Virus record (IMG/VR): IMGVR_UViG_3300045995_000378
Source: a virus
Length of the DNA: 64,000 nt
Reading direction: 5' to 3' (one strand)
Of the stretch, positions 7,638-63,759 are shown one piece after another. Position numbers and translations under genes: made by a program. Under the pieces are notes generated by a model. That model saw only the letters and a program-made list of their open reading frames with translations, did not search any database and was not told the DNA's origin. Position 1 is the first letter of the stretch, and every line of letters begins with the position of its first letter.

Positions 7638-7743
7638 CTTATTATCTCTTATCTGGTCGCTACATTTACGCTGCGTGCCTTGGCCCGACCTCCCTCCGTT
7701 CCGGGGTCGTGCCGTTCACGCGCTACATTCGCTTGTCTATCAG

Positions 7744-8022: not shown

Positions 8023-8048
8023 GATAGTCTCCTTTTTTGGTTTAGTGG

Positions 8049-9542: not shown

Positions 9543-9593
9543 GGTTCATTCTCCTTTTCAATTTCAGGTTCGGGTTGGATCGTGTTTTGGTAT

Positions 9594-9622
9594 CTGATAC
9601 ACCTTATTTAATATGTTGTCAA
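9594..9622 (-). promoter_or_regulatory. sigma70-like promoter GCTTGACAACATATTAAATAAGGTGTATCAG (minus strand)
   Basis: TTGACA-N17-TATCAG; conserved with the promoters at 29858..29886 and 30382..30409. Confidence 0.55.
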
Positions 9623-9643
9623 GCGTTATGTTAATTAGTCGGA

Positions 9644-20258: not shown

Positions 20259-20335
20259 TGGCGAAGGGCTAAGGAATCGAACCTTACACAGTCAAATTTG
20301 GAGTCTGACTCGCCAGCCTTGGAACATGGCCCCCC
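20259..20335 (-). tRNA. tRNA-Trp(CCA)-like gene with encoded 3' CCA
   Basis: reverse complement reads GGGGGGC...T-arm TAAGG-TTCGATT-CCTTA...GCCCTTC-G-CCA; anticodon loop CTCCAAA (U33, CCA, A37); G18G19 in D-loop; weak D-stem and two G-U pairs in the acceptor. Confidence 0.5.
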
Positions 20336-38900: not shown

Positions 38901-41458
38901 AATGATTTTTTCTGTTCCTCGAACTCCTTCTTGTTCGTAGCAACGGCTAATTTCCCAATCTCATCCCATTTTTTCTTTTGTGCATCGTAATTTGCAATGG
39001 TAGCTTTATTTTCTTCTTGCTTATTCCATTCATTGAATTTAGCTACTGCCGTTTGTCGTTCTGGTATAGCTGCTTTCTCTGCTTGAGAAACTGACCATCC
39101 AGCAGTAATATGTGCTTGTTTCTCGGATTCAATAGTTAATAAATCTTGCTCATAGACAGACTTGCCAATTTTTTCACGTTCTAACTGGTTCTTGCGAATG
39201 ATTTCGGTGATTTGCTTTTGGATATCCTCAGCTTTTTTAAGTGCTGCCTCGTCGCCTTTTCCAGGAGATACTCCGGGAACATAACCTGATCCAGCCGCTT
39301 TCTTTGCCGCCTGATATTGTTTATCATATCCAACTATCGCATCAGCAATCCCATCAACAAGAATCTTTCTATTCGCTATGCTTAATTTTTCTACTTCGGA
39401 GAAATTCTTCTTAGCCTCTTCCCATGCCGTTTTCGCAACACTTGTATTCCCAGTTGCAAATGCGCCGATTGCGAGGGTAGCATTGCCAATCATTTTCAAA
39501 AGATTATAAGTAAGAGAAATTGAATTACCTAAAAATTCGCCAATAGGTTTTAAAACAGCAAGGACTCCGCCCCATCCGTAAGCAATAGCACTGACCAACG
39601 GTGGAATATCTTTTAGCAGTGGGCCAAATCCTTTGAGAACACCCCACACTGCTCCAATAGCATCAGCAATAGCACTTATAGATGCTCTAAAATACACACC
39701 TATCAATGGTGCATTTTCCCTTGCCCATCCAACTAATTCCTGCCCACTGGTAACTAACCCCTTATAGAAATCAGCAAATATTTCTGTTTGTAAAATCATC
39801 CATGTTGTTTTAAGTGAAGAACTTGTAGCTTCCCATGTTTTTTGAATATCACCAGAAGCAGCCGCAATACCAACCAAGTATGGGCTTATCCTTTCCAACC
39901 AATCGTTATGCTTTGCAGCTTCAATATTCAACCCAGCAAGCCCATCCTTATAATCACCTTGCCGCCTAATTTGTGTGTCAACCATTTTGGCAATTTTGTT
40001 CCGAGTGGATACTGTACCATCCAATAACGCATTAGTTTCTTGCGATGATTGTTGCTCTTTGCTTTGACCAGCAGTGTACATAGCAATTGCATTAGAAAGA
40101 GCGGTTGCAGCTACCACCTGTTTCTTATTGCTACCATCAAGAATAACGCCATGCATCGCAAGGGCATTATTCATATTGTTGACCTGTTCAAGGTTCATCA
40201 ACGAAGCGGCATCTATTTGCATTAAAACAGGAACAAGGGCTTTTGCGTAGCCAAGGTTATTCTTATAATTCTCTGCTATATTGCCAGTAGTACCTTGCAA
40301 ATTTGTTATTGTTGCAGCAACAGTCACAGCAGATAATTGCATTTTATCAATGGTTTCTACCCCAGACATGAACGCTCTGCCAACTACTCCAACAACAGTA
40401 GATATAACATAATACGCCGCATAGAATCTCAGCACCGCACGAGTCATCGATGCCATCGACATCTCATGCTGGCCGGTCATCTCCCTGTTCAATTCCTTCA
40501 ATTTCTCATTCTTGGCGCGTTCGATTCTAACCCAGTCATCCGAGCTTTTGCCGACTATGGCTTGCTGTGCGGTGGCGGCATTCTGGACATCGGATATGCG
40601 TTGCTTGACATCAGCGGCGGATTTCATGCCGAGGGTGTTATAATGTTCATTGGTAGCTGCAATCTTGTCCGATGTCGCCTTCTTGGTACGTTCAACATCA
40701 TCCTTGGTAGCCTGAATCTGCATCAAACCTTGTTCTCTGGTACGCTTGGCATTTTCAGCCCATGCTTCCGATTTGGTGGCTTCCATCTTCTTCTGCCATT
40801 CCATTTCGGTCATTATACCTTGGGCTTGAGCCTCTTGGAGGGTTTTGGTTTCTTTAGCACGCATTGCAGAAGCTTCAAGTTGCATTAAGCCTTGTGCCCG
40901 TATCTTTTCCTGTGCGGCTATTATTTCATTTGCAGCATTCTTGGCAGAAGCAACCGCCTTCGCATCATTGGCTATTTTTACCGCCATGTACTCGTTATCC
41001 AAAGCGGTTAGTTTAGCAGTTGTAGCTACTTCAATGGCTTCAATATCACGAGCATTGCCCGCAGCCGCAGCTCTTTCCATCTTATAGACTTCCATGATAG
41101 CAAGCCGTTCTTGGTTAAGCTGTTCTGTCGAACGGATACCCAACATAGATAATCCGGGGGATGCAGCCATTTGTTGATTAAGTGCATTAATTTTGGCAAC
41201 CATTGAGGCTTGAGCACGATATTGTTCAGCAGCAGAGGCATTGGCAGAGGCAGATATTTTCTCGTAAGCCTTGATAGCTAAGTTAGCCATCATTTGGTAG
41301 GTCTGGTCAGCAGTGACACCAAGTTTCTGAAAACTGTACTGTAGAGCTTTATCAGCCTTAGAACCGATTAATTCAATATCCTTGAGAATGGTTTCTTGCT
41401 TGGATTTGAATTTACTGAGGTCGATGTCAAGTTCCGTAAAAATTGAGGCTACAGCCAT
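35993..41458 (-). CDS. tail length tape measure protein (1821 aa)
   Basis: very long Ala/Lys/Glu-rich coiled-coil protein with hydrophobic central segments, downstream of chaperone-like genes. Confidence 0.75.
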   Translation of the reverse strand: MAVASIFTELDIDLSKFKSKQETILKDIELIGSKADKALQYSFQKLGVTADQTYQMMANLAIKAYEKISASANASAAEQYRAQASMVAKINALNQQMAASPGLSMLGIRSTEQLNQERLAIMEVYKMERAAAAGNARDIEAIEVATTAKLTALDNEYMAVKIANDAKAVASAKNAANEIIAAQEKIRAQGLMQLEASAMRAKETKTLQEAQAQGIMTEMEWQKKMEATKSEAWAENAKRTREQGLMQIQATKDDVERTKKATSDKIAATNEHYNTLGMKSAADVKQRISDVQNAATAQQAIVGKSSDDWVRIERAKNEKLKELNREMTGQHEMSMASMTRAVLRFYAAYYVISTVVGVVGRAFMSGVETIDKMQLSAVTVAATITNLQGTTGNIAENYKNNLGYAKALVPVLMQIDAASLMNLEQVNNMNNALAMHGVILDGSNKKQVVAATALSNAIAMYTAGQSKEQQSSQETNALLDGTVSTRNKIAKMVDTQIRRQGDYKDGLAGLNIEAAKHNDWLERISPYLVGIAAASGDIQKTWEATSSSLKTTWMILQTEIFADFYKGLVTSGQELVGWARENAPLIGVYFRASISAIADAIGAVWGVLKGFGPLLKDIPPLVSAIAYGWGGVLAVLKPIGEFLGNSISLTYNLLKMIGNATLAIGAFATGNTSVAKTAWEEAKKNFSEVEKLSIANRKILVDGIADAIVGYDKQYQAAKKAAGSGYVPGVSPGKGDEAALKKAEDIQKQITEIIRKNQLEREKIGKSVYEQDLLTIESEKQAHITAGWSVSQAEKAAIPERQTAVAKFNEWNKQEENKATIANYDAQKKKWDEIGKLAVATNKKEFEEQKKSFEAYQRMMDANEDLALSDHQRAMNRINAKAKAEQALIDLQVLSGKISPAQAELDKTKIAGITGQQTAEELAKDASDVAKQYANLTKYADTYYTKKMDLIEKTRQMEIGALMDVGAANAKAAQEQLKLIGEVWDLKHKEQNDVIAGTGKVLDAAMTMYDTDSSEYKRLADLKKGILIAEMAMEAAKNVALLANMIAQNAAYGAAMAKKVASLELTAAEAILTQGEGEPYTAFARIAAMMAIVAGVLGAVGVAGGFGSSSSAGSTANTETYTGTSTVLGASDQTGSESISRSYELLKDTYDMEDTKLTGIYNEMKDLNTNITGLVTGIVKMGLTTFGAAAETNLEGSAAKFFDDNFVSDAATQIFGNTIAKIVDPVFSYLSDLSMSGFGSIANWFAGGDSTTTSTGSGISFGAGKAGSQTFSGYRDMKTETDKGWLFGGGTDTTTWQEGIALSAEVNKLLTKVFTGMGDTLVSLAGELGTSTTDALNYTFEAATLSLQGMTTDEMNTAISEYFSNLADTAVEALFGDILSQYQELDEGLLETAVRIVSDKNAILNALDMTNQAFSGTTVELIAFSESLITLAGDLDTLTTAVSSYYDKFFSDGEKYTYLLSSLTDVFASMDVTMPATREAYKALVESLDLTTEAGQSTYVSMMLLADTADSFYTMLDDMVSAISDAKDSMELEGLTYAESQATTAYLALKTVLAEAKLGNFTNVSDLDLSTIASNASSTSGFATREEYQANYWKTYNSLTQLEDLVGGTTTTEEKSLVVQTSSLSVLQEIAANTSTTTATTTSATTAATIASDTAAAAATTISDTAATTSTVATSKVSESWTVAALTELYYKVFYPNGFPLGTLLPNSDTMIESLRVQGYASGGDFSGGWRVVGEQGPELEYTQPSTIISNSGSKAFLDNSDMVAAINDLKEELKTIGYAVSKNTLKATKIFDRWDQDGLPPDRAGIVSKWDTEGLPATRA

Positions 41459-41462: not shown

Positions 41463-42959
41463 CTACCTCTTCATCTCAGGTTCTTTAAGCATCTCTTCTT
41501 CGATCCGCGCCTGGGCAGTACCTTTGATTGCCAAAAAAGCTGGCCTCATGAATGGTTGCTTCTTTGAATGAGAAGTTCCGAACTCAACAAAAGAATTTGA
41601 CACAACAATACCGCTTGCAATGAAAGAATGAACATCTTTTATAGAAAGATCATATAGGCTTATGTCGCTTTCGCTGGCATCAACAATCTCTTTTTTCACA
41701 ATCTTTCTGGCCTCAAAATAGGTCATATCAACAAAACTATTCATTGAATTATTGCATTGCATATAACGCACACCAGGAATCGGGGACGGATTAATGGATT
41801 TACTGAATCGCCTGTCTGTAAAATGAATATGAACGATATCCCACCCCGGAAGAAGGTTAATGATTTCTTTATCCCTCTCAATATCTATTGCCTGATTTGA
41901 ATGCCAGAATGCACCATCGGCCTCAATAAGCATTTTCTTTTCTGGAATAGCGAAGTCTGCAAAATGATTGCCGACCTTAAATTGACGTTCATATTGCAAG
42001 CCAGTTAATCCAATCCATTCCTCAACCTGCTTTTCGGAACTCGTTTGGAACCCACGTTGAGACATGATTCTGTTGGGATGTGTTTCAGGTCTTGCTACCA
42101 TCCTTGCTGTCGTTACTTCATGCATTAGCTGCCTTGTTGAATCCGTTCTTTTTGAGCCAATATGGGGATTATTTCCTTTCACCCAATATTCATCCCTGCA
42201 TTGCACGGAGCAATATTTCTTCCCTTGGCTATCTTGCCGAGTAAACTCTTTTTGGCAATTAACACAAACTCTTTTCTTCCCTTTCCCCTTATCAGGCGAA
42301 ATCTTTTTAGGACAAAATACATAATCGCCTTCTTGTAATTCACCAGCTTTTACCCAAAATGAAACACCGTCTTTTATGGTTAATATTTTATGGTCATCAG
42401 TTACAGTTAAAGTGTGTTTTCTATCTGATCGCCACTCCACAGTTAGTCGAACAAGGTTCGGTTTTTGCTTCGCAGGAAATGAACTTTTCAAGAGAACTTC
42501 GTGTGGCATCCCGTCTTGTCCAATTACAAGATCACCTTCTTTTATTGAACTTATTGCCTTGAATCCACAGGATGTCTTGATTGTTGTCCCTGGCCCATAA
42601 ATACAAGCGTAAAATCGCGTCGCCGATCCTGCATAAACTCGAATATTCCCTGGCCGGTCGTTCTTCTCAACCTTACGAATAGTATCTCGTAGACTTCCAG
42701 CAGTACGGCCCATCTCTGTTTTTGCGATAAAGTTGACATGCTTCCCACGACCTCTACCAGTTTTGGGAGTGAACATAACATCTCGCATTACGGTCCCATA
42801 GCCTCGATAAGTAGTGCCAATTGCTACATCTTTTTTAGTGGGGCATCGCCTATAAGCATCGGCGGCGACATCGGCCATAACCTTATTCGCACCAATGATA
42901 GCAAGGTCGGCTATGTTCTGGAAGACTTCTTTAATTTTCAGGCCAACTACCCGTGCCAT
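41463..42959 (-). CDS. HK97 gp10-like tail/neck protein interrupted by an intein
   Basis: exteins join to ...TIKTS/SFVEFGTSHSKKQPFMRPAF (gp10-family vEfGT..PflrPAf motif). Confidence 0.6.
   Translation of the reverse strand: MARVVGLKIKEVFQNIADLAIIGANKVMADVAADAYRRCPTKKDVAIGTTYRGYGTVMRDVMFTPKTGRGRGKHVNFIAKTEMGRTAGSLRDTIRKVEKNDRPGNIRVYAGSATRFYACIYGPGTTIKTSCGFKAISSIKEGDLVIGQDGMPHEVLLKSSFPAKQKPNLVRLTVEWRSDRKHTLTVTDDHKILTIKDGVSFWVKAGELQEGDYVFCPKKISPDKGKGKKRVCVNCQKEFTRQDSQGKKYCSVQCRDEYWVKGNNPHIGSKRTDSTRQLMHEVTTARMVARPETHPNRIMSQRGFQTSSEKQVEEWIGLTGLQYERQFKVGNHFADFAIPEKKMLIEADGAFWHSNQAIDIERDKEIINLLPGWDIVHIHFTDRRFSKSINPSPIPGVRYMQCNNSMNSFVDMTYFEARKIVKKEIVDASESDISLYDLSIKDVHSFIASGIVVSNSFVEFGTSHSKKQPFMRPAFLAIKGTAQARIEEEMLKEPEMKR
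41595..42569 (-). mobile_element. intein (~325 aa) with embedded endonuclease domain
   Basis: Cys1 (CGFKAISS), block B TVTDDHKILT (TxxH), blocks F/G LYDLSIKDVHSFIASGIVVSN followed by Ser; internal zinc finger and GNHFADF...IEADGAFWH endonuclease-like motif. Confidence 0.7.
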
Positions 42960-45889: not shown

Positions 45890-46684
45890 TTACTCGTTAA
45901 TTGCCTGTAATAAGGGCATGTGACATTCAATTCGTTTTCTGATTATGTCGCAATAGGTGGCATCCTTTTCAATCAGGATGTATTTTCTATTCGTGTTTAG
46001 ACAGGCCACACCGGTTGTGCCGCTACCCGCGAAAGGGTCAAGAACCGTGTCGCCTGCGTTGCTCCATGAAAGAATGTGGTCGGTGGCGAGTCGTTCAGGG
46101 AACATGGCCGGATGCTGATAAGCCTCCTTGCACGTCGTTCCTTTTCCGTATCCGGTGCTATATGCCCATATATTTTTACGCTTCCCGAAAGCCGCTATCA
46201 CCACGGGATTCCTTTTCGATGTGCTCCCGTCCGCGTTTCTGACCGTTTTGCTTGATACTGTTTTCCCTCCTTGAGAGTTTGCCCGGTCACTTATCATATA
46301 TGCCGTTTTTGGTTTTCCTTTACTCAACACAAACATATATTCAAAACACGACCAATATCGGTTATGATTAGGCTTCTGGAAAGAATCTTTTTCAAAAATC
46401 ATCGTATCGTGAAGGTTAAAACCAAACTCCTTGAAGTAAAGTGCCTGTTTGAATGATGTCCCCGTTTCGCTCCCGTTGATTGTGGCATCGCCTACTACCC
46501 AGACCACCACACCGCCGTCTTTCGTAACCCTGTAAAGTTCTTTAGCTATCCCCTCAAAATCAAAGGTAGAATTGCCGTTATAGGTTCGCAGATTGTCATA
46601 GGGCGGAGATGTCACCGTCAGGTCAATGGACTTATCGGGCAAAGTCGGCATTATGGTTAAGCAATCACCTTCGTACAGCATCAC
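45890..46684 (-). CDS. DNA methyltransferase (N4/N6 family, pfam01555-like)
   Basis: VTSPPYD and DPFAGSGTT motifs. Confidence 0.8.
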   Translation of the reverse strand: MMLYEGDCLTIMPTLPDKSIDLTVTSPPYDNLRTYNGNSTFDFEGIAKELYRVTKDGGVVVWVVGDATINGSETGTSFKQALYFKEFGFNLHDTMIFEKDSFQKPNHNRYWSCFEYMFVLSKGKPKTAYMISDRANSQGGKTVSSKTVRNADGSTSKRNPVVIAAFGKRKNIWAYSTGYGKGTTCKEAYQHPAMFPERLATDHILSWSNAGDTVLDPFAGSGTTGVACLNTNRKYILIEKDATYCDIIRKRIECHMPLLQAINE

Positions 46685-47373
46685 TTACTCCGTTGGAAGA
46701 GGGCTATGCCACAAGGATTAGTCACATTGGTTGGCGATATCCACTCATTGATAAACTTGTAATCCGCGTGAGTCTTCATCTCCCTTACTACCCTCTCAAC
46801 CTCGCCGCCATTCCACACTGAATCATGGAGGAAGAGGTATCCACCGGGGGCAATCATGGGCGCGAAGTGTACAATATCCATCATTGTCTCCATGTAGGTA
46901 TGCACAGCATCAAGAATGACAAGATCAAAAGGTGCATATTTCTTGGCACGGCGCACCGCGTTCTCGGATTGCGAATCGTCTATGATTTCAATAGTGTCAA
47001 TTTCGCGTAATATTCTACCACGATGGAAACATTGAGGATGGGAGTTATTGTCTACGATTATAATGGTTTTGGGGTGGAAATAGTGATTGAATAAGAACGT
47101 GGTTCCACCAGCTGCCGCGCCTACTTCAAGGTAGGAATTTATCTGCACATTATTGGATAGAAGGTAATGGATACAGGGACCTATTTCGTCTATAACCTGC
47201 TGGCAAAAGTTTCCACCTACGAACGAACCTTCCATCTGACCGAAGGTGTTGAAATCCTCAGTGCCGTGGGAGATTACAAATTGCTGGATTTCTTCAATAG
47301 TGGGGATAACCTGCTTAGTCGGGTTCGGTTTAAGATCGGCAATCTTGATTTTGGTTTTAACTTCTTCTTCCAT
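46681..47373 (-). CDS. class I SAM-dependent O-methyltransferase, Methyltransf_24 (CmcI/TylF-like)
   Basis: LEVGAAAGGTT motif I, IIIVDNN, DLVILDAVHTY (FIDADH-type motif). Confidence 0.55.
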   Translation of the reverse strand: MEEEVKTKIKIADLKPNPTKQVIPTIEEIQQFVISHGTEDFNTFGQMEGSFVGGNFCQQVIDEIGPCIHYLLSNNVQINSYLEVGAAAGGTTFLFNHYFHPKTIIIVDNNSHPQCFHRGRILREIDTIEIIDDSQSENAVRRAKKYAPFDLVILDAVHTYMETMMDIVHFAPMIAPGGYLFLHDSVWNGGEVERVVREMKTHADYKFINEWISPTNVTNPCGIALFQRSK

Positions 47374-47403: not shown

Positions 47404-48018
47404 TCAGCCGAATAATCTTAATTGAGCATGGCTGTCATTATTGCTTTTTATTATATTGCACTGATGGCATAAGCACCGCGTATTTCGCATAGAATGTTCT
47501 CCACCATTACTTAATGATATTATATGGTCAAGATTTGGATATAACATATGATTAACATTTTTGAAATCAGGTCTCGTTTTCTTCTTACAAATTTGGCACC
47601 TATATCCATCTCGTTTAAAAACATCAATAGGATTAAATTGTTCATATCCCACGCCAAACTTCGCAGATTTTCTCTTGTAATTTTTATTCCTCATCACAGA
47701 TTTGCCTTGTTCAGTCTGCCAATATTCCTTTTCCCATGCTGATATTTCTTCTTTGTGTGTTAGCCGATAGATTATTGCGGTCTTCTTTATTTCTTCTTTA
47801 TGTGACTGATTATACTCCTTGCTGTACGCTGCTCTTTTTTCTTTATTAGCATCGCGAAACTTTTTCTCTTGAGCTAATCGTTGTTCTCTGGTTGCTGCAC
47901 GATATGCCTTAGCCCTAACAGCAGCCTCTGCTTTATGTTCATGGTAATGTTTTCTACCATATTCCAACCGCTTCGCTATCGTAGCAGCACTATACACCAG
48001 AAAGCACCTCCGCTGCAA
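47404..48018 (-). CDS. HNH endonuclease
   Basis: CQICKKK...NLDHIISLSNGGEHSMRNTRCLCHQCN. Confidence 0.7.
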   Translation of the reverse strand: MQRRCFLVYSAATIAKRLEYGRKHYHEHKAEAAVRAKAYRAATREQRLAQEKKFRDANKEKRAAYSKEYNQSHKEEIKKTAIIYRLTHKEEISAWEKEYWQTEQGKSVMRNKNYKRKSAKFGVGYEQFNPIDVFKRDGYRCQICKKKTRPDFKNVNHMLYPNLDHIISLSNGGEHSMRNTRCLCHQCNIIKSNNDSHAQLRLFG

Positions 48019-48965: not shown

Positions 48966-49376
48966 TTACGTCCCTTCCCTTCTAAAGATACACACCATCG
49001 ATGGTCTCATTGAACCATTCTTTGAGAAACCAACAAATTTCACCCTTCCTCGCAAGAACCTAATTTCCGCCTTTCCATAAACATAATCATGGAACCATGC
49101 CGTATCAGTATTTACAAAAACCAAGAAGACAATCGTTTTTGCCTCTTTCTTTAATTCCTCATGTGCCTTTACAAGCCATTTTTTAACTTGTGAATAAGGT
49201 GGATTGACAAAAACATTGCCCCGCCATTCCATGTCAAGTCCGTTCACCATTGATTTCAAAGGGCAGGGATCAAGATCAAAATGAAATTCAGAATCAAGCT
49301 GACGATACAACCATTCAGGGGTTGCCCAATCATCCGTTACTTTTGATCCAAATAAGTCTGTTTGATTTTTATTCAC
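48966..49376 (-). CDS. dam: phage-type DNA N6-adenine methyltransferase (Dam, pfam05869-like)
   Basis: DDWATPEWLYRQL...FDLDPCP N-terminus and NPPYS motif. Confidence 0.7.
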   Translation of the reverse strand: MNKNQTDLFGSKVTDDWATPEWLYRQLDSEFHFDLDPCPLKSMVNGLDMEWRGNVFVNPPYSQVKKWLVKAHEELKKEAKTIVFLVFVNTDTAWFHDYVYGKAEIRFLRGRVKFVGFSKNGSMRPSMVCIFRREGT

Positions 49377-50131: not shown

Positions 50132-51421
50132 CTAAAAGTCAAAGTCCATATCATTCAGCTTACCACACTGGTTCACGAAACGTCCGTAAGTATCACTTTT
50201 AATAACCGTCTGACCTGTAGTCTTGTCGCCCTTATCGGTAAAATTATCCGCACAGTGACATTTAATTGCTCTTTTGAAACTTACAGGGACTTCCGCCGCC
50301 GTAGCCCAACCACAAACATATCGAATTGTAATCGGATTATGAGGATAAAGTTCTCCACTTGGCCACGAACCGCCGTACAGAAGTCCGACAAATCCGCATT
50401 GAGTCCCATTTATCACTACAACATAATCGGTATTTTCAACAAGGGTTGTAACTGTTCCGGCTGAATCTATCCACGTCACGGATGTCACGCTGACAAGATT
50501 TCCCCATGGTAATTTAATCCTATTTCCAGAAGGCCATTTCTTTGGGCAATAATCCCAAACCTGCTGCATGATACGCTTAGAAGTATCGTTTTCAACTGAT
50601 AGTCTACCCGCTGCAATCAATTCGATAAGGTTGGTATCTTCGGAGACATTCGGTTCCCAGACCATGATTGAAGTTCCGAAATCACATGATGCTACGAGTG
50701 TTTTGGCTACAGTTCGGATATATTGCTTAGTGCCGGTATAGGTTTTCTCCTGAATGACCGTATCGTTTAATTCCGTTACCTGCGTAAACGCCCCTGTCGC
50801 CCAATCGGTATAGGGCCCGGCAAGAACATCGGCTTCCTGAATCTTGACATCCACCGTCCCGCTAGCTCCGTTATTCACCGGGGTCAGATAGACGACTGCT
50901 GCACGACCTAAGACATTCACCGCTGTCCCTAAGAGGGTGTATGCAGTCACGACCCCATGAGATCCGGATGCAATAGAGGTGTATAGGGTCGAATCCGTCG
51001 CCATCGTGCCTGAATCTATACCTAATGCTGTGCGAAGTTCTGCAATTGTCACGGGTTCTAAGGTAGGTTCGGTAACACATCTTGTCCCCCCACCTGAAGA
51101 TGATACCGAACTGGGGATCTCAAGAACCGACAAGATTCCATCTAATTCATAAGTCGAAGCAGGAGTGCCATCACCGATAATCGTGCAGGTTAATAAATAA
51201 TTCCGGCCACTTGTACCATTCTGCACCCATCCATATACAATCTTAGTTGAAAAAGTTTGGTTGCCGACCTCCAGAATTGTTGTGGAAACATCAAGACCGG
51301 TAGTTTGATCTATTGCGGTTATGATTGCCGATGCTATGTTTTCAGTGCCTAACGGCAGAGTGAAATCAAAACTAATCGCATAGGCTTCGGAGGGCTGCTT
51401 GGACGAAAATTGAGTTGACAT
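50132..51421 (-). CDS. structural protein with gp6-like head-tail connector motif in the middle
   Basis: VTIAELRTALGIDSGTMATDSTLYTSIASGS resembles the gp6 connector signature; N- and C-terminal extensions. Confidence 0.3.
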   Translation of the reverse strand: MSTQFSSKQPSEAYAISFDFTLPLGTENIASAIITAIDQTTGLDVSTTILEVGNQTFSTKIVYGWVQNGTSGRNYLLTCTIIGDGTPASTYELDGILSVLEIPSSVSSSGGGTRCVTEPTLEPVTIAELRTALGIDSGTMATDSTLYTSIASGSHGVVTAYTLLGTAVNVLGRAAVVYLTPVNNGASGTVDVKIQEADVLAGPYTDWATGAFTQVTELNDTVIQEKTYTGTKQYIRTVAKTLVASCDFGTSIMVWEPNVSEDTNLIELIAAGRLSVENDTSKRIMQQVWDYCPKKWPSGNRIKLPWGNLVSVTSVTWIDSAGTVTTLVENTDYVVVINGTQCGFVGLLYGGSWPSGELYPHNPITIRYVCGWATAAEVPVSFKRAIKCHCADNFTDKGDKTTGQTVIKSDTYGRFVNQCGKLNDMDFDF

Positions 51422-51424: not shown

Positions 51425-54091
51425 TTATGCTCCCGTTATCCGCGAACCGGCAGATATGTCTTTTACCCGTTCCGGCGATGATAACCCGGATGTTGTTGAT
51501 GGACTTATTATATTACTATTTTTAGTTGTTGCAAATATTACTTTTGAATTGAATGGTGATGTCGCTTGATCGGCTGATCGTATCTCCGGGTACGTGCGTG
51601 TGATGTAGAATGTGTCGCGAATAGATGTAAGATCAACATTGCTCAATGTGCCAAACATATCAATGACTAACAATAAAAATTGATCAGTTACAGTGTTGAT
51701 ATCGGATTGGATAGAATTGAACCGGTCAAAAAGAACTGAAAACTGGTCGTAGGTTAATAAAGTTTCGACTCGATTGATTAGATAAACGTCCTGCTGAATC
51801 GTGGGAATATCGGAAATGGTTAATGATTCAGATTGAGATTTGTTTATAACGTCCATCATTATTGTGATTGAATCTTGGATGGTGGACAATTCCTGCTTGA
51901 AAACTCCATAGCTTCCAAATGGAATTGAAATAGTAAAGGTATCGGAAATAGTTGAAGATTCTGATATGAAGGTATTGAATAAATCTAACATTACGGCAAT
52001 TGAATCTTTAAGTGTAGATAGTTCATGTAAAAGTAATTCAGAACTCCTCCACGATGAACTAATAGCAAATGAATCCCCAACCGTAGCGGAATCGGAATAC
52101 GAGATATTGAACAAATTTAACATTGCAGAGAAGGAATCAGACACAGTTGCATAATCTGACTTAATTGCATTATAGGCATCAAATATTATAGATAATCGTT
52201 CGGCCAATGAGGTGCTTTCAGATATTGACTGGATTAGTTGTTCATATTGAATAATTGCGGCATCCGCAGTTGTTGTCATTTCTGATTGATGTTTGACAAT
52301 TAAATCAACCATAATAGTAACAAAGTCGGTAATCGTGGCTTTATCAATATTGCTTAATTCAAATCCACCATATAAAATTGCTATGGTGAGTATATCAGCA
52401 AAAGTTGTGCGGTCTATTAAAGAAACATTGTATTGGTCAAGCATTAAACTAGCTATGTCTTGAATCGTTGAACTATCTAAAGCTGATAAATTCAAAGTAT
52501 CAAGCATTATGGCAAGCGTGTCTCGAATAGTGATTTGCTCTGTATTAGAAATATTATAAATATCCAATTGGAGGGAAAGAATATCTCGCAAGGTTAAAGA
52601 CTCTGACCTACTACTTACCAGAACATCAAACATCACGCTGAAGGTATCTTTAATTGTTGCTGTGTCAACGGAAGCTATTACGAACTGGTCAAACATTACC
52701 AATGCTATATCCCGAAGTGTGGCTTTATCTACTAATAAGGGGACAAAGGCATCTAAAATAATACTAATTACATCTTTGATAGTTGCGCGATCTGATAACG
52801 AAAGGTTAAAATCTACAAGAAATATTTCTAATTCAATTGCCAGAATATCCTTAGCTGTGGCCACTTCTATATTGTTGGCATTAAGAACATCAAGAATAAT
52901 AAATAGGGTGTCCTGGGTAGTTAACCTGTCTATGCCAACAATTATGAGTTTATCTAAAATAAGGGAAAGAACGTCGCTAACGGTAGCACTATCTATGCTT
53001 GATACGTTTAATGTATCAAGGATCAGGCTGAAAATGTCCCGGGTAGTAGCATTGTCTACATTGCTGACATTTAATTTATCGAGGATTGCAATAAAGGTAT
53101 CACTAACTGTAGCATTATCTGCCGCCGACACATTTAATTTATCAAGAATTACAGCCAAAATGTCTTGAGTAGTTGCTATGTCTTGGTTAGAAACATTGAG
53201 AATGTCAAGAATGATAGTCAATGTTTCACGAATGGTTGCTGTATCCGCATTGGCTGTAATTAGTGTATCGAACATTACTGTCAAGATGTCTTGAACAGTA
53301 GTTTTATCAACCTGAGCCGAACAAAGTACATCAAGAATCAATATGAAGATTTCTTTGATTGTTGTTTTTTCAGGCGAAACTCCCGCAGTGCTTTCCTGTA
53401 CAAAAGTGTCACCATCTTCGGTTAATAAAGAAAAGCCGTCTTCCATCAACAACTTTCCGCCCACAACACTAGAATTTATATAAATGTCAACAATAGAAGA
53501 GATTAAAGATAGAGTTGCTGTTTCAGACAAGGTTGCTTGGTCAAGATTGGATTGGTTAATAATATTGAAAAACAAAGTTGCCATATCCCGAATTGTCGCG
53601 ATATCTTGATTTGATGTTACAAGAATATCGAAAAGTAAGGTAGCCACATCTTGGATGGTAAAGTTTTCAGTACCAGATGAATTAAGTTGATCTAAGATTA
53701 GGGTGATAACATCCCGCGTTGTTACCGTGCTTGCGATTTGTGCGTTAAGAGTATCAAGGACGATCGAACTGACATCACTAATAGTAGCAGCATCAATGTT
53801 GTTAGCCTTCATAGCGTCAATGATTATGGAAACTATGTCTTGGACTGTTGCTGAATCTAATCGGGAAAGGGGGATGTCTGTAATGATTGACTGTAGGGAT
53901 ATGGTAATTATTTCCTGAATAGTGGCAAACTCATCATTATTAGCAATGTTAAGTTTATCTAAAATCAAGGTAACAATATCTTGATTCGTAATAGTCTCAT
54001 TATCTGCCACATTCAAGACATTAAGAATGACGGTTTTAATGTCTTGAATGGTTGCTTTCTCTGATTTTGCTACTGCTCGTGCTGTCGTCAT
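51425..54091 (-). CDS. 888-aa protein composed of ~35 degenerate ~20-aa tandem repeats (ATIQDIxTLILDxLNxSNxD); fibrous structural protein?
   Basis: continuous ORF; repeat visible along nearly the whole protein and as ~60-bp periodicity in the DNA. Confidence 0.6.
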   Translation of the reverse strand: MTTARAVAKSEKATIQDIKTVILNVLNVADNETITNQDIVTLILDKLNIANNDEFATIQEIITISLQSIITDIPLSRLDSATVQDIVSIIIDAMKANNIDAATISDVSSIVLDTLNAQIASTVTTRDVITLILDQLNSSGTENFTIQDVATLLFDILVTSNQDIATIRDMATLFFNIINQSNLDQATLSETATLSLISSIVDIYINSSVVGGKLLMEDGFSLLTEDGDTFVQESTAGVSPEKTTIKEIFILILDVLCSAQVDKTTVQDILTVMFDTLITANADTATIRETLTIILDILNVSNQDIATTQDILAVILDKLNVSAADNATVSDTFIAILDKLNVSNVDNATTRDIFSLILDTLNVSSIDSATVSDVLSLILDKLIIVGIDRLTTQDTLFIILDVLNANNIEVATAKDILAIELEIFLVDFNLSLSDRATIKDVISIILDAFVPLLVDKATLRDIALVMFDQFVIASVDTATIKDTFSVMFDVLVSSRSESLTLRDILSLQLDIYNISNTEQITIRDTLAIMLDTLNLSALDSSTIQDIASLMLDQYNVSLIDRTTFADILTIAILYGGFELSNIDKATITDFVTIMVDLIVKHQSEMTTTADAAIIQYEQLIQSISESTSLAERLSIIFDAYNAIKSDYATVSDSFSAMLNLFNISYSDSATVGDSFAISSSWRSSELLLHELSTLKDSIAVMLDLFNTFISESSTISDTFTISIPFGSYGVFKQELSTIQDSITIMMDVINKSQSESLTISDIPTIQQDVYLINRVETLLTYDQFSVLFDRFNSIQSDINTVTDQFLLLVIDMFGTLSNVDLTSIRDTFYITRTYPEIRSADQATSPFNSKVIFATTKNSNIISPSTTSGLSSPERVKDISAGSRITGA

Positions 54092-54092: not shown

Positions 54093-54428
54093 TCACATCA
54101 TCCGTTCTCGTGATCCAACTTTTTCGGCTACATGAATCCTTAACACACCATCATCAATTGCTATTGGGATGTCCTCTTGGTACTTACAGCCTAGTTCTTT
54201 TAATTCGGCATAATGGGTCTCGTATCCTGACTTACAGAAACGTGGTCTACTCTCATATATCTTACATTTCCCATCTTCAGCTAATTCCTTACAAGGATGA
54301 TTAAAAAACACTGTCTGCCCTATCATCCGGCCACCCCGAACCGCAATGTGCTTTATATCATAAGCAAAACTTGAAACTGGTAAGGTTAAAAATCTGCAAC
54401 ATATCCCACATTTGGCGCAAGTACCCAT
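54093..54428 (-). CDS. YkgJ-like CxxCxxCC zinc/iron-chelating domain protein
   Basis: CAKCGICCRF motif. Confidence 0.5.
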   Translation of the reverse strand: MGTCAKCGICCRFLTLPVSSFAYDIKHIAVRGGRMIGQTVFFNHPCKELAEDGKCKIYESRPRFCKSGYETHYAELKELGCKYQEDIPIAIDDGVLRIHVAEKVGSRERMM

Positions 54429-55027
54429 TATCCTACCATCCCAAATATGTCACCCGTAGTAACATCATCTACAAACCCAAATACATTAGAAGGAATGTTG
54501 CCACCTTCCCAGTCATCGGCTGTAGAATTCAGGTAATAAATGGCGAACCCTGCGCTACCAGATGTAATGTCACTATCAACTGCTGTCACTCGTAATATAC
54601 CATTTTGAAGCAATGTGAGATTAGTTCCTACAACTCGTAATTCCCAAATATCACCAACTACCGCAGTAAGTCCGGAAGTACTTCCAATAGTAGTTTGTGT
54701 CCCGGTAATAAATTTCTGAATTAAAAAAGTGGTTCCATCATCACATCCACCCAGATAACAAGTTTTTTCTGACGCAGACTGTCTGACAATTAGCTTATGA
54801 CTCCATTCCGTCTCACTATTTTGTGCAGTAATTTTTATTTTGCTATATTGATTGTTCTCAAATACATCTAACCCCCAATACGCACCACATTCACCATTAA
54901 CTCCCAAAGAATTTCTTACTACTCCTGATAATTTTTTTAGTGGATCTGATGGGAAAGGATTAGTAACCCAATTTGTGTTTAAAGGATTCTCGTCTCCAAT
55001 AAAAGAATCAATTGCTGGTAATGTCAT
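54428..55027 (-). CDS. tail fibre/receptor-binding-like protein (start trimmed to ATG)
   Basis: track start is a TTG; beta-rich, Thr/Gly-rich. Confidence 0.35.
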   Translation of the reverse strand: MTLPAIDSFIGDENPLNTNWVTNPFPSDPLKKLSGVVRNSLGVNGECGAYWGLDVFENNQYSKIKITAQNSETEWSHKLIVRQSASEKTCYLGGCDDGTTFLIQKFITGTQTTIGSTSGLTAVVGDIWELRVVGTNLTLLQNGILRVTAVDSDITSGSAGFAIYYLNSTADDWEGGNIPSNVFGFVDDVTTGDIFGMVG

Positions 55028-55140
55028 AATTTTATCTCTCGAATAATTGCTTGTTGATAACCATTCTTTAAGATTTTGGCACTTTCTTTTTACTGAACCC
55101 AAAAAACACTAGATAAAAAGCGAATAAAATTACCATCAAA

Positions 55141-55602
55141 TTAAGCTACTACATACTCAAAGGTAATAATCGCCCGTGTTATGGTTCCATCTACGCTTGT
55201 CGTCTTCCAGCCTATGTAATTGCCAGCCGCTATACTGGCGTTCGATAATGCACCATCATCATTTGTATTAGTATCTGCTGCACCAACAATATCAGAACCG
55301 TCCACAACAGCACCGTTTAAACCATTGGAATCATATTCATACATCTGACCTGTAATAGAAATTCCACCTATACACAAAACATGAATAGCGGTAATTGTTA
55401 AATTTACAGGCGCACGCCATAAAGGACTATCTGCCGTAGCGGTTGGAGAAGTAATTACAAAGGATTTGGATAGCGCCAATGCTTTACTGAGACTAGCTAC
55501 GGACACCTTCTTGTTTGCGCCCCCAGCATCAACTTCAACTAACATATTAGTCGAAACGAGAGCGGTATCTTCAGTTAATTGACTTATTTTTTGATCAGCC
55601 AT
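55141..55602 (-). CDS. tail fibre N-terminal domain protein
   Basis: MADQKISQLTE N-terminus. Confidence 0.35.
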   Translation of the reverse strand: MADQKISQLTEDTALVSTNMLVEVDAGGANKKVSVASLSKALALSKSFVITSPTATADSPLWRAPVNLTITAIHVLCIGGISITGQMYEYDSNGLNGAVVDGSDIVGAADTNTNDDGALSNASIAAGNYIGWKTTSVDGTITRAIITFEYVVA

Positions 55603-56409
55603 TTATTTCACCTTCGCGTACTGCAATTCTTCACCGGCAATCGGGTATTGTTGACCATCCATCGCAATGTGACGGCAGAAGATATTAGTGTCACAGAGTA
55701 CCGACCACTTCTTTTTCTGGATATCCGGCCACCCAGCACGTTCGTAAATCTTCTCTTTCTTCAAGCGATTATAGAAAAAGATATCCTCTGTCCCGCCTTC
55801 GGTTTTCCACTCATTCTTTTCGGAATCATAATAGGTCCGGCTGGGAGTCTCGAATATCCGCCGGACTGTTTGCGTTCCCATCTTATATTCTTCAGAATCC
55901 TTGTAAATCACCTCAAGAATCGAACGATGGATAAGGTTGCAACCAAGCCCCATTGCCTGTAACCAAACCAAGTCTCCCATCTTCCAGTCCATGAAGTAGG
56001 ATGATCCATATTCACGGTACATTAGGGGCTCTGCTGGAACACCTTTAGTGAAGTATAACCCACCAAGAACGGGTACTGTCCCCTTCATCATCCAAGTATT
56101 AAGACGGCTAAAGGTATCATAAGGAAGAATTACATCGTGATCGAGGAACAGGAGCCATTCGAAGTCCCCTTTAATAAATGCATCAACTGCTGAATTCCGG
56201 GCATCAGCAACAAGGAATCCCATTGGAGAATACTGATCCATCCACTGGATTATTTCTACCTGAGACCAGTTTGTAGGGATACCTTGACCATAGCGTGAGA
56301 GCATCCATTCAGCACGAACAAGACCGGTAAGAGGAACGGAGATTAAAAGTCTCTTGCCATATTTAACCTGGGCATTGACTATCGTTGAATTACGCTTTAG
56401 GAGTTTCAT
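55603..56409 (-). CDS. GT-A fold glycosyltransferase (GT2-like)
   Basis: N-terminal RLLISVPLTG..., DXD motif in LFLDHDVILPYD. Confidence 0.5.
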   Translation of the reverse strand: MKLLKRNSTIVNAQVKYGKRLLISVPLTGLVRAEWMLSRYGQGIPTNWSQVEIIQWMDQYSPMGFLVADARNSAVDAFIKGDFEWLLFLDHDVILPYDTFSRLNTWMMKGTVPVLGGLYFTKGVPAEPLMYREYGSSYFMDWKMGDLVWLQAMGLGCNLIHRSILEVIYKDSEEYKMGTQTVRRIFETPSRTYYDSEKNEWKTEGGTEDIFFYNRLKKEKIYERAGWPDIQKKKWSVLCDTNIFCRHIAMDGQQYPIAGEELQYAKVK

Positions 56410-57767: not shown

Positions 57768-58367
57768 TTAATGGTTTAATTGGCTAACTTCTAATTCAAG
57801 TTTTTGTATCCGCGCTTCAAATGAATGTACAGATTCTTTTAAAACTCTATTTTCTTCTTCTAATCTCATAACATTCTTGCCCTTAGCAAAGTGGTTGTGG
57901 ACATGTAAGGAACGAGAAATCACTTCAAGGTTCTCTATACGATTGTCTTTTGGATCACCATTGATGTGATGAACAATTTCTTTTGGTTCCAAATATCGTC
58001 CTAATTTTTCTTCCATCACAAGACGATGTTCCATAACATAACCATGATTGCTTGCATAGGGATGATTAGGACGTTGAAGCATAGTATAATTTCCTCCGCC
58101 TCCTCCCTTACATTGTCCCCCTTGCCAATGGCTTGCTAATTCGCCAACCCACTCTTTTCTTGGTCTAATACGAATCCCATTCTTTCGCAAAATTGCCGGA
58201 ATAGAATTCCTATTTATTCTCAATTCATGTGCAACCGCTGTCATTGACATTGTTTCATACAATTTTGCTACCTGTTTGCCATCTATCACTTTTTTAACTG
58301 TTGTTACCATATATAGACCTCCTAAATTATTTTCAGAAAGTCTATCTCTATAATGCAACAAAGTCAA
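57768..58367 (-). CDS. HNH homing endonuclease with N-terminal HTH
   Basis: HGYVMEHRLVMEEKLGRYL...VHHINGDPKDNRIENLEV. Confidence 0.7.
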   Translation of the reverse strand: MTLLHYRDRLSENNLGGLYMVTTVKKVIDGKQVAKLYETMSMTAVAHELRINRNSIPAILRKNGIRIRPRKEWVGELASHWQGGQCKGGGGGNYTMLQRPNHPYASNHGYVMEHRLVMEEKLGRYLEPKEIVHHINGDPKDNRIENLEVISRSLHVHNHFAKGKNVMRLEEENRVLKESVHSFEARIQKLELEVSQLNH

Positions 58368-58393: not shown

Positions 58394-58906
58394 TTAAGAA
58401 GTTGACGCTAAAAAAATTACGTCATACGTCAGGTTGACCGCTTGGTTACTCGCAATTGAACTTGACGCATAAGTCCCGCCGCAGAATATATGGTCAGTCG
58501 CAACACCGTACAATCCAACATTGGAAATGAGTGCAGTGGATGTTCCAGACACCCAAGTCGCCAAATATCGAGCTGTATCCCCATCGGTTGACGCTGCACG
58601 AGTAATGTAGGTTTTAGATACCGTCTTATGCAATGTAGTGGCAAGCGAGCCGGGGAGGATCGTAGCATTAGATGCGACTAATGAGGCTGACCCCAATGCC
58701 GCCAAATTGATTACCTGCGACCCTGCTGAAGATGCGAATACATAGGTCATATATTCAGTTATGCCCATCGAGGTAATCAGGTTATGCTTGTACCCACTAT
58801 CTCCCACAACTTCCCCATCTTCTACAATGTTTATCCTGAACATTCCATGCATTCCGACACTCACTGTGGGATGGGCACTTTCTACTTTTTTAGTTCTTGG
58901 CATCAT
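58394..58906 (-). CDS. hypothetical structural protein (170 aa)
   Basis: Ser/Thr/Ala-rich beta composition. Confidence 0.35.
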   Translation of the reverse strand: MMPRTKKVESAHPTVSVGMHGMFRINIVEDGEVVGDSGYKHNLITSMGITEYMTYVFASSAGSQVINLAALGSASLVASNATILPGSLATTLHKTVSKTYITRAASTDGDTARYLATWVSGTSTALISNVGLYGVATDHIFCGGTYASSSIASNQAVNLTYDVIFLASTS

Positions 58907-62530: not shown

Positions 62531-63034
62531 TTAAATCAGCGACTCCACGTAGGCTCCGTCTGACAATGGCACCCACAAGCATGTTACTTTTGAAGTTCCG
62601 CTTGTCTGAGCAGCCGCAGCACCGGTGATGTATAATACGCCTAGCCCATTGGCAGTACCAATATCAACTGGATTAGTTAAGAGGGATATGCCAGGGGAAG
62701 CAGCTTCCAGTGCACCAGTAGCCAATGCATCGCCAAGAACTGCCACTCGCTTTCCTACAGCTAGTGAAGTCAAGGCACCTGAAGCAGCACAAATGTCAAC
62801 TGCGCCAGTAGCCGGAACACTGGGGTCGTAGCCAAATTTAATAGTAGTCGCATCCGCAGACCATACGGTGATGGCTTCAATGCCGAGGTACAAAAGCCGA
62901 ATCAGGCCCGACACAGTAAATAGTGATTTCTGGGAGATCACAACATAGGTAGCATTGGCGAATACGGCGGTTTCCGTTTTAAGACCACGGATGATATCTC
63001 CTGCAACTTGCATGGTGGATGGTGAGTAATTCAT
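62531..63034 (-). CDS. hypothetical structural protein (167 aa)
   Basis: ORF. Confidence 0.35.
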   Translation of the reverse strand: MNYSPSTMQVAGDIIRGLKTETAVFANATYVVISQKSLFTVSGLIRLLYLGIEAITVWSADATTIKFGYDPSVPATGAVDICAASGALTSLAVGKRVAVLGDALATGALEAASPGISLLTNPVDIGTANGLGVLYITGAAAAQTSGTSKVTCLWVPLSDGAYVESLI

Positions 63035-63261: not shown

Positions 63262-63759
63262 TTAGATAACCGCCATCGAGGTCAGGTTAGCATCCTGGAA
63301 CCGGCCACCGGACAACAGTACGCTCACACAACCAACAGAAGCAGCACCGGGATCAGCAACACAAACCCGGAATCCGATATGATTGGCAAGCAACATAGCC
63401 GCTTTGATTTCGATTATGTAGCAAGCAGGGGTTGTGGTTGCAACCGGAATCAATCCCGCAGAAGCCGAGGTCGTCCAGGTACGCGCGCCATGCACATCGC
63501 CATTCGCCAAGATAGAGCTGGTTTCATAGCGATAATACGGGAACATGATCGCCGTTGCAGTGGTAGGAACCACATCGTCACACGACTCAATGGTAACAAC
63601 CGCAGCAGCTTTCGGAACGCCCCAATTAATGATAACCATTGCCTGATCGAAACTCCTCATCAGGACAACCAGCGGGGCTTTGGCACCCTGCAAGGTGTCA
63701 ATGTCAATCGGGGTGTAAACATTGGGAATGAAATGAACATCTTCGAGTTTAACTTTCAT
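63262..63759 (-). CDS. hypothetical structural protein (165 aa)
   Basis: ORF. Confidence 0.35.
   Translation of the reverse strand: MKVKLEDVHFIPNVYTPIDIDTLQGAKAPLVVLMRSFDQAMVIINWGVPKAAAVVTIESCDDVVPTTATAIMFPYYRYETSSILANGDVHGARTWTTSASAGLIPVATTTPACYIIEIKAAMLLANHIGFRVCVADPGAASVGCVSVLLSGGRFQDANLTSMAVI

Follow-up and report, generated by a model that had tools for sequence, protein, structure and literature searches.

The stretch of viral DNA considered here (IMG/VR virus record IMGVR_UViG_3300045995_000378; 64,000 nucleotides (nt), hereafter the window) derives from a tailed phage with its structural genes on the minus strand, and encodes an 888-amino-acid (aa) protein composed largely of regular, 21-residue tandem repeats. 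The open reading frame (ORF) of this repeat protein, the 21-residue repeat itself, the rarity of the family to which it belongs and its linkage to a cassette of enzyme genes are matters of observation. The original prediction, a reading of the DNA letters alone, had placed the ORF at positions 51425-54091, and the match is exact (minus strand, ATG start). The gene and the parts of its product are as follows:

51425..54091, minus strand: repeat protein, 888 aa, ATG start, ORF confirmed; predicted right-handed parallel beta-helix of ~35 coils of 21 residues
53474..54055, minus strand: N-terminal array, residues 13-206, ~9 units, one of them 25 residues long
53366..53473, minus strand: non-repeat insert of 36 residues, residues 207-242 ('LLMEDGFSLLTEDG'), with the motif 'LLxEDGxxLLTEDG'
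52340..53365, minus strand: central array, residues 243-584, colinear with the homologue P0001 and holding the modelled segment 285-410
51602..52339, minus strand: C-terminal array, more degenerate, residues 585-830, with 23-residue variant units
51428..51601, minus strand: Ser/Thr-rich, non-repeat C-terminal tail, residues 831-888

Self-similarity of the protein, scored with BLOSUM62 against residue shuffles, peaks at lags of 21, 42, 63 and 84 residues (z = 21.0, 16.4, 12.1 and 8.6, respectively), whereas lag 20 in the same scan returns z = -1.4. The tandem periodicity that had been foreseen is thus far above chance, but its period is 21 residues, or 63 nt, rather than 20; the motif first proposed spans 20 positions, leaving out one variable linker residue, and otherwise agrees with the computed unit consensus, A1 T2 I3 x D5 x h T/S8 h h L11 D12 x L14 N15 x S17 x x D/E20 x. 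Within this consensus T2, D5, D12 and D/E20 are conserved in 94, 87, 81 and 90% of units. The ~35 degenerate copies expected from inspection are borne out by a repeat hidden Markov model (HMM), which counts 35 units, ~29 of them full-length and 6 truncated or variant (23 or 25 residues), and most units are exactly 21 residues long. The claim that repeats run from end to end holds for ~88% of the protein, and fails for residues 1-12, the insert at 207-242 and the last ~60 residues. A leucine-rich-repeat consensus fitted to the unit by eye gave no fit and was dropped, as was the idea of N-glycosylation sequons: N-x-S/T occurs 17 times against 10.5 +/- 2.8 expected (z 2.3), a mild enrichment, and Asn15 is not conserved in the repeat family.

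Homologues of the protein preserve much of this arrangement. The insert recurs at the equivalent place in P0002 and in the homologue at locus L022, and residues 243-576 align with residues 751-1085 of P0001 unit by unit and in register, with a 25-residue variant unit at the same place in both proteins. Since the units keep this register, the 25-residue unit included, the array must be old, its units having diverged in place. The C-terminal array (585-830) is common to the L025 homologue, and is lacking in P0001, P0002 and the 470-aa protein of L022, where the array ends instead in a ~30-residue tail, 'G(Y)LGIPNLPxxGTLxGxIGGRxPxHxH'. This 'IPNLPxxGTLxGxIGGR' tail, which might be an attachment or trimerisation element, is absent from the window protein, where a second array stands in its stead. 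No signal peptide is apparent, as the N-terminus (MTTARAVAKSEK) is without a hydrophobic segment, and the protein contains neither an autotransporter Pfam domain nor a C-terminal beta-barrel translocator, its C-terminus being the Ser/Thr-rich tail.

At the DNA level the copies have drifted far apart. Tandem Repeats Finder reports no array in the gene, nucleotide identity at lag 63 is 42% (29% in codon shuffles), pairs of 63-nt units are on average 47.5% identical (maximum 67%), and the longest exact stretch common to two units is 14 nt, where shuffles reach at most 13 nt. Copies so diverged are unsuited to homologous recombination today, and the recombinational length plasticity that had been attributed to DNA repeats finds no support as a mechanism. 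Change in length as such is well founded, however: repeat number, when compared across relatives, differs widely (roughly 7 to 35 units), from which we conclude that the array has lengthened or shortened over evolutionary time.

The repeat gene lies 1 nt after the stop codon of the gene upstream and 3 nt before the ATG of a head-tail adaptor gene, and the 11 kb around it hold no excess of promoter- or terminator-like sites relative to shuffled sequence. Given this spacing and the want of such sites, it is a single cistron in a tightly packed operon. Its product is rich in Ile, Leu, Ser, Thr and Asp, has a single Cys and a single Trp, and is strongly acidic (119 Asp + Glu against 47 Lys + Arg; net charge ~ -72). 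The low GC content of the gene (36.3%, versus 43.2% for the whole window) could reflect an Ile/Asn/Asp/Thr-rich composition, or a foreign origin of the cassette. Near the 5' end of the mRNA, a near-perfect hairpin of 15-17 bp (window 54010-54050, codons 14-27) has a folding energy of -21.8 kcal/mol in its 101-nt context (z = -2.5; 4 of 200 shuffles equally stable), and could either slow translation or be due to chance. An antisense ORF of 168 aa within the gene (52662-53168, plus strand) is most likely a by-product of periodic codon usage in the repeats, not a gene.

Relatives of the repeat protein are few. It matches nothing in Pfam (E<=0.01), PHROGs or NCBIfam, the repeat profile finds nothing among PDB sequences even at E<=10, and megablast and tblastn searches of GenBank phages (50,697 records, tblastn) returned nothing for the region, for the repeat protein or for the glycosyltransferase (GT)-like protein encoded nearby. 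Viral contigs searched with the single repeat protein as query yielded no contig, and a word-indexed search of 5.8 billion protein clusters yielded one relative, P0001; HMMER with a three-unit profile, run against 1.84 billion representatives, found 23 proteins at E<=0.001, at least one of which (P0020) looks spurious. The arrays of relatives are built from the same kind of unit (for example 'SDSVTVSESxxxLIPELKVSK') and follow varied globular N-terminal domains, which measure 190-750 aa in P0001, P0002, P0003 and the L025 homologue, and one such domain among the array-bearing relatives is a ConA-like lectin domain. A keyword search of the literature for 21-residue-repeat phage fibres gave nothing relevant. 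The protein had been called unusual among phage structural proteins, and fairly so, such regular sequence repeats being very rare. Both the repeat family and its enzyme cassette appear undescribed, whereas the fold considered next is of a known kind, the beta-helix being common in phage spikes.

Two AlphaFold2 (AF2) runs bear on that fold. The full-length protein, modelled from a two-row alignment, came out with one helix of 14-17 residues per unit at a mean predicted local distance difference test score (pLDDT) of 40.6, with no residue above 70, and this model was rejected as unreliable. Nor does it agree with the relatives, in which unit positions 12-13 hold Pro, 'NP' or 'DP' and position 16 holds Pro. 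A deeper alignment was assembled from 34 non-overlapping, in-register repeat segments of the window protein and 16 family members, in which MAFFT kept the 21-residue register. With these 34 rows, the six units at residues 285-410 were modelled as all-beta, the best model reaching a pLDDT of 85.4 and a predicted template modelling score (pTM) of 0.77, and the others scoring lower. The predicted model agrees with the stacked coils of known beta-helices (~20-25 residues and three strands per coil), and its Foldseek matches are weak and all beta-solenoids. The conserved acidic residues fall at unit positions 5, 12 and 20, at intervals of 7, 8 and 6 residues, which fits the three corners of a coil; high-information aliphatic positions alternate within each side of the unit; and all variation in unit length (the 23- and 25-residue units) maps to positions 12-15, which, together with Pro at 12/13 in relatives, fits a corner and not a helix. 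We therefore predict, with fair confidence, that the repeat protein is a right-handed parallel beta-helix with one coil per repeat, and the solenoid or fibre that had been suggested from the sequence gains support from the all-beta model. As beta-helices usually rise ~4.8 A per coil, 35 coils would form a rod of ~17 nm, interrupted once at the insert, and the uniformity of the coils would speak against a groove. Profile comparison by hhalign between the repeat and the Beta_helix proteins of L032 and L011 gave probabilities below 0.1%.

The repeat gene is accompanied by a recurrent set of genes, in the order 170-aa protein, CmcI-like methyltransferase, GT-A-like putative glycosyltransferase, small LRIH/CxxCxxCC protein and repeat protein. 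The members in the window, two further genes among them, and the adaptor gene that follows are:

58394..58906, minus strand: 170-aa protein, the first conserved cassette gene, 67-88% identical in L015, L022, L023 and L024, and 30% in L035
56409..57530, minus strand: S-adenosylmethionine-dependent methyltransferase, 373 aa, two domains, the C-terminal one matching Methyltransf_24 and CmcI/rhamnosyl O-methyltransferase
55603..56409, minus strand: GT-A-like putative glycosyltransferase, 268 aa, its D90-H-D92 (DxD) motif invariant; conserved better than any other cassette gene
55141..55602, minus strand: 153-aa protein, conserved at its N-terminus (MADQKISQLTEDT...) and variable beyond it
54428..55102, minus strand: variable cassette member, 224 aa, with a weak 'virion structural protein' match
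54093..54428, minus strand: CxxCxxCC (PF03692) protein, 111 aa, with a conserved C-terminal 'VLRIHxAExVG'
50132..51421, minus strand: head-tail adaptor, 429 aa, unusually long, with a gp6-like region at 258-386

Linkage between these genes and the repeat family is seen from both directions. Starting from the repeat, P0001, P0002 and P0003 are all encoded downstream of a methyltransferase (53-64% identical to that of the window), a 265-269-aa GT-like protein (77-81%) and a small 'LRIHxAExVG' protein, the last corresponding to the C-terminal part of the 111-aa CxxCxxCC protein. Starting from the 268-aa GT-like protein, a search of viral and metagenome contigs found nine more loci, and wherever these hold enough downstream DNA a repeat protein follows the small gene. 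An informative exception is L032 (GT-like protein 83% identical), where the small gene is followed by a 539-aa, non-periodic protein of the Pfam Beta_helix family; a gene of matching position and size there may be a counterpart of the 170-aa gene. In nearly every locus the gene with the LRIH motif directly precedes the repeat gene, sometimes as a stand-alone gene of 49-58 aa. Identity of the GT-like protein across loci is 77-96%, and that of the methyltransferase is 53-83% in L001, L015, L016, L022-L025 and L029. The repeat protein measures 470 aa in L022 (L026 is the same contig) and has 16 units there; in L025 it reaches 1,067 aa and 26 units or more, and in L029 it has 398 aa. In L030, and in the groundwater contig L023, which is the closest relative, the contig ends before the repeat protein is complete.

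Two further loci are more distant. In L034 (GT-like protein 63% identical) a methyltransferase, a GT-like gene and an RmlD-like reductase precede, in this order, a protein of 1,342 aa that peaks at lag 21 (z 4.5) and matches the repeat HMM (E 1.6e-11). In L033 (GT-like protein 53% identical) the next gene after the GT-like one encodes a protein of 1,488 aa that also peaks at lag 21 (z 5.5) and matches the window repeat protein in a BLAST search (E = 9e-11). Enzymes, small protein and repeat protein thus occur together in 11 loci (the window, L001, L015, L016, L022/L026, L023, L025, L029, L030, L033 and L034). The 153-aa protein belongs to the module, before or after the repeat gene: in L015 and L022 a homologue comes next downstream of the repeat gene, and in L023 it comes next after the GT-like gene. 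The 224-aa protein has a related domain inside an 801-aa protein beside the distant L035 cassette, and in L023 its place is taken by a 554-aa ORF. PDB sequence searches with the 170-aa and 224-aa neighbours were uninformative.

The cassette also keeps its station while the surrounding genome changes. In the window the repeat gene is followed by the 429-aa adaptor, a head-closure protein and a tail terminator, whereas in L022 the cassette is flanked by the large terminase gene on one side and a T7-type portal on the other, beyond which come a protease and the major head protein. It is therefore found in two unrelated phage backbones, always within head-morphogenesis genes, and as the backbone of L022 differs while the region is again that of the head, the cassette is a module that moves between phage lineages and stays in the head region. 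None of the 13 viral contigs that are related to the window through the adaptor gene encodes a repeat protein. What these relatives have instead is a highly variable region between the adaptor and their head-side homologues of 63262-63759 and 62531-63034, occupied by a single 203-aa gene in L013, by a 1,128-aa Pfam Beta_helix/NosD protein in L011/L012, and in L009 by a NosD-like 386-aa protein and a 471-aa protein, the N-terminus of which resembles the tail-collar-fibre-like protein of the window. The variable block of L006 is directly preceded by the major capsid gene. Contents so varied mark the slot as a hot spot for spike- or fibre-like accessory genes at the head-connector boundary. The adaptor itself has an N-terminal region of ~115 residues with a sub-threshold similarity to the GP4 fibre-tail adaptor Gp77 of a podophage (E 3.5e-5; 24.7 bits, cut-off 27), found among the relatives only in L009 and L010, and this domain could be a docking site for a neck fibre.

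Both cassette enzymes point towards sugar chemistry. The C-terminal domain of the methyltransferase matches Methyltransf_24 (E 1e-16) and CmcI/rhamnosyl O-methyltransferase (E 4e-8), and its weak NCBIfam matches are sugar O-methyltransferases. For the 268-aa protein, matches were obtained to the PHROG 'glycosyltransferase' (E 2.8e-5), to Pfam Glycos_transf_2 (GT2; E 0.031, below its cut-off), to the STIV viral glycosyltransferase A197 (E 0.11) and, as the only and weak match of the family profile in PDB, to yeast Mnn9 (E 0.69). These four GT-A matches are independent and all fall over residues ~64-169, where D90 and D92 of 'FLDHDV' are invariant in 11 homologues, D90-H91-D92 as a whole being invariant or nearly so; we regard the protein as a likely GT-A glycosyltransferase. 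It has no heptosyltransferase match, and all 1,169 members of its family in a large collection are unannotated. Locus L033 (NCBI GCA_041643255.1) is a phage-like contig of 67 kb with a sugar island at 1-20831. Around the GT-like gene and the repeat protein, this sugar-nucleotide island encodes a complete nonulosonic-acid pathway (an epimerase/dehydratase, a DegT aminotransferase, NeuB and a CMP-transferase), as well as two CmcI/Methyltransf_24 proteins, a Maf-type PF01973 protein and a further protein of >1,000 aa. PF01973 is the Maf domain of flagellin nonulosonic-acid glycosyltransferases (10.1101/2020.06.03.131540), and L033 is, independently of the window, a strong candidate for protein glycosylation by phage-encoded enzymes. 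Elsewhere the cassette has gained an acetyltransferase (L022) or the RmlD-like reductase (L034). By analogy, the contexts of L033 and L022 point to protein glycosylation rather than DNA modification.

Rates of change differ sharply between the members. Between the window and L023 the GT-like protein is the most similar, at 96% aa identity, followed by the 170-aa protein (88%), the CxxCxxCC protein (86%), the methyltransferase (83%), the 153-aa protein (73%) and the N-terminus of the repeat protein (69%). Nonsynonymous divergence (dN) is 0.03 in the GT-like gene and 0.24 in the repeat gene, and the ratio of nonsynonymous to synonymous divergence (dN/dS) of the latter, ~0.13 with dS near saturation, indicates purifying selection. 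Judged from these alignments, the repeat gene is a real and constrained gene and the fastest evolving member of the cassette, and fast evolution under constraint would fit a surface-exposed protein.

What we infer for the repeat protein, namely its location in the virion, its oligomeric state, its glycosylation and its function, builds on these strands of evidence. Our preferred reading, held tentatively and at somewhat less than even odds, is that it is an accessory head or neck fibre, a beta-helix rod glycosylated by the enzymes of its cassette. The first half of this proposal draws on the place of the gene in the late operon and on the head side of two backbones, on the spike-like proteins that fill the slot in relatives and on the lectin-like fusions of homologues; the second draws on strict co-inheritance with the enzymes, and on the precedents of TibA/AIDA-I and the mycobacteriophages discussed below. 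The whiskers or head fibre entertained in the original prediction are accordingly plausible, if unproven, given a late gene upstream of the adaptor in the window and in the terminase-portal interval of an unrelated phage. Under the glycosylated-fibre proposal, each 21-residue repeat would form a three-sided coil with D5, D12 and D/E20 at the corners and aliphatic residues stacked inside, and ~35 such coils would make up an acidic rod of ~17 nm with one break at the 36-residue insert. The protein, encoded by the last gene of a mobile five-part cassette, would be produced late, along with the head-tail connector proteins of its operon, and would be glycosylated in the cytoplasm by the cassette enzymes, possibly with O-methylated sugars, the acceptor being the near-invariant Thr2 or Ser17 of each coil. 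Displayed on the virion head or neck as an accessory fibre, the rod would present a glycan coat for adhesion or shielding. A bolder version, which we regard as possible but rather doubtful, is that of a self-contained mobile phage system for building a glycoprotein fibre, wherein the GT-A-type transferase and a sugar O-methyltransferase would decorate the Thr/Ser of every coil, giving tens of glycan sites per molecule, and relatives would add nonulosonic-acid, rhamnose-type or acetyl chemistry.

Several observations weigh against the glycosylated-fibre proposal. The fold is a single prediction from a pseudo-alignment of repeat segments, and not a unanimous one, the remaining four models of residues 285-410 scoring pLDDT 76, 64, 60 and 47; the two-row, full-length run gave low-confidence helices (pLDDT 40.6), and the protein belongs to neither the Beta_helix (PF13229) nor the NosD (PF05048) profile of Pfam. 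The window protein has no recognisable N-terminal anchor domain, its repeats starting at residue 13, and the search of GenBank phages found no cultured phage that carries it. As regards the enzymes, each glycosyltransferase match is weak (E 2.8e-5 to 0.69), and the best PHROG family of the methyltransferase is labelled 'DNA methyltransferase'. The enzymes of L032 are paired with a non-periodic beta-helix protein with a signal-peptide-like N-terminus, and the GT-like family (1,169 members) is far larger than the detected repeat family (23). The enzymes might act on a target other than the repeat protein.

The main rival is an enzymatic or receptor-binding spike, that is, a beta-helix of the tailspike or depolymerase type which binds or cleaves host polysaccharide, the enzymes having an unrelated role on the host surface or on phage DNA; we consider this unlikely. 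Enzymatic beta-helices have irregular coils and groove-forming loops, and a sequence repeat is rare among them. Tailspikes, depolymerases and the phi29 pre-neck appendage gp12 share such irregular coils, in which no sequence repeat is detectable, and are trimeric, with a virion-binding N-terminus and usually a catalytic groove, whereas 88% of the window protein is regular repeat from residue 13 onwards. The extreme regularity of its 35 near-uniform, 21-residue coils, with no obvious active-site elaboration, argues against this rival, as does the lack of an N-terminal particle-binding domain and of any Beta_helix, NosD or PHROG tailspike match. Such a spike would also leave unexplained the co-inheritance with the enzymes across 11 loci and two backbones.

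Other readings dispense with either the fold or the fibre. An alpha-helical fibre, made up of one short helix per unit capped by a T2-x-x-D5 box, or of a coiled-coil whisker like that of T4 fibritin, seems improbable: it agrees with the 14-17-residue helix per unit of the full-length model, with hydrophobic positions 3, 7, 10 and 14 spaced 3-4 residues apart and with a unit of three heptads (21 = 3 x 7), but that two-row model is unreliable and gives way to an all-beta one at 34 rows (pLDDT 85), polar residues occupy positions 17 and 21 of the putative heptad core, and the Pro residues of relatives at 12-13 and 16 would break the helix. Quite improbable, too, is an acidic rod that stays inside the cell, as a DNA mimic or anti-defence protein or as an assembly scaffold. 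DNA mimics include the beta-helical pentapeptide-repeat protein MfpA and the elongated, acidic Ocr and ArdA, and a net charge of ~ -72, three Asp ladders, roughly DNA-like dimensions and the lack of a signal peptide or anchoring domain would all suit such a role; yet the gene sits in a late structural operon coupled to the head-tail adaptor and not among early genes, homologues fuse the array to lectin-like and other globular domains typical of surface proteins, and a link to sugar-modifying enzymes is unlike a DNA mimic. The measuring element that had been suggested at the outset, for which length and repetitiveness are the sole support, and with it a head decoration or cement protein, we hold to be very improbable. 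The phage has a conventional tape measure of its own (1,821 aa, 35993-41458, PHROG E 2e-38) at the expected tail position, the predicted beta-helix differs from the extended alpha-helix of tape measures, and close phage relatives do without the gene, which speaks against an essential ruler or cement.

The proposed glycosylated fibre resembles several known systems in part. T4 fibritin (wac) whiskers and the phi29 head fibres (gp8.5) are accessory, non-essential and attached to neck or head, with genes among the head and neck genes, much as the repeat gene lies beside the adaptor or portal; both, however, are trimeric, alpha-helical coiled coils, whereas the window protein is a predicted beta-helix without sequence similarity to either. 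Flagellin glycosylation islands, which combine Maf (PF01973) and nonulosonic-acid genes, find a likeness in L033, also a cytoplasmic O-glycosylation toolkit beside a polymeric surface protein, but the window has neither nonulosonic-acid genes nor a Maf homologue, and its candidate acceptor is not flagellin. Among bacterial adhesins, the beta-helices of TibA and AIDA-I are glycosylated by an adjacent, dedicated transferase, TibC or Aah (PMC4358343). AIDA-I, TibA and Ag43, together with Hap and HMW1, and with Aah/TibC and HMW1C as the enzymes, would by analogy share with the cassette a glycosylated beta-helix and a dedicated enzyme. The window protein nevertheless lacks the signal peptide, C-terminal beta-barrel and two-partner secretion domain of the adhesins, as well as sequence similarity to AIDA-I, TibA and Ag43, and the window enzyme is GT-A-like rather than a BAHT heptosyltransferase or GT41 member, is joined by an O-methyltransferase and is encoded in a phage structural operon. 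PMC12619734 cites Freeman et al. (2023) for the glycosylation of mycobacteriophage capsid and tail-tube proteins by phage enzymes; there, as in the cassette, phage glycosyltransferases are encoded in or next to structural genes and are proposed to decorate virion proteins. In the mycobacteriophages the acceptors are the C-termini of capsid and tail-tube proteins and the enzymes are unrelated to ours; here the candidate acceptor is a dedicated repeat protein that travels with its enzymes.

Further features of the window lie outside the repeat protein. An HNH endonuclease gene (57768-58367, minus strand; Pfam HNH_3 E 2e-13) separates the 170-aa gene from the methyltransferase, and since these two are adjacent in L015, L022, L023 and L024, it seems to be a homing endonuclease that was inserted in this phage specifically. 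A second CmcI/Methyltransf_24-like methyltransferase (230 aa, 46681-47373, minus strand), a paralog of the C-terminal domain of the cassette enzyme, lies between the tail terminator and a 448-aa putative major tail protein, and is kept in L009 and L010, both without a repeat protein, for which reason the lineage may also modify a tail component. A 498-aa ORF (41463-42959, minus strand), which directly precedes the tape measure, has HNH/homing-endonuclease-like matches at ~216-379 and a tail-completion/Neck1-like match at its C-terminus; it may represent a structural gene that a mobile endonuclease has interrupted or become fused to. DNA methyltransferase genes number at least four, which is unusual (48966-49376, 45890-46684, 12315-13061 and 2987-5227), and there are several HNH endonucleases (e.g. 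47404-48018), some of these methyltransferase and HNH genes being interleaved with structural genes. A single tRNA-Trp (CCA) gene lies at 20259-20335 (minus strand). Regarding the host, a distant module occurs in L035, a contig of 58% GC in a Nitrospira sp. BLG_1 assembly (6877-9772 and 1235-3637), and comprises a 170-like gene, the N-terminal domain of the methyltransferase, a GT-like gene (44% identity), a lysozyme and the 801-aa protein. This is a weak hint, being a single, distant match from a genome scan, and does not extend to the 43% GC window.

Surface fibres and spikes determine where a phage can attach, on cells or on other surfaces, and no building block is commoner in them than the beta-helix. 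The repeat protein is distinguished from these by an unusually regular 21-residue repeat without a database family, and by its inheritance together with a sugar transferase and a methyltransferase. If the cassette enzymes do decorate the rod, then virion glycosylation, so far known mainly from mycobacteriophages, would extend to environmental phages, and the cassette would be a viral counterpart of the glycosylated adhesins and flagellins of bacteria, the first in a phage to unite a purpose-built acceptor with its enzymes in one module. So compact a module might find use in glyco-engineering, and would provide a functional handle on more than 1,100 unannotated, GT-like phage proteins. Should the enzymes act elsewhere, the protein would still offer a clean, natural example of a long and uniform predicted beta-solenoid.

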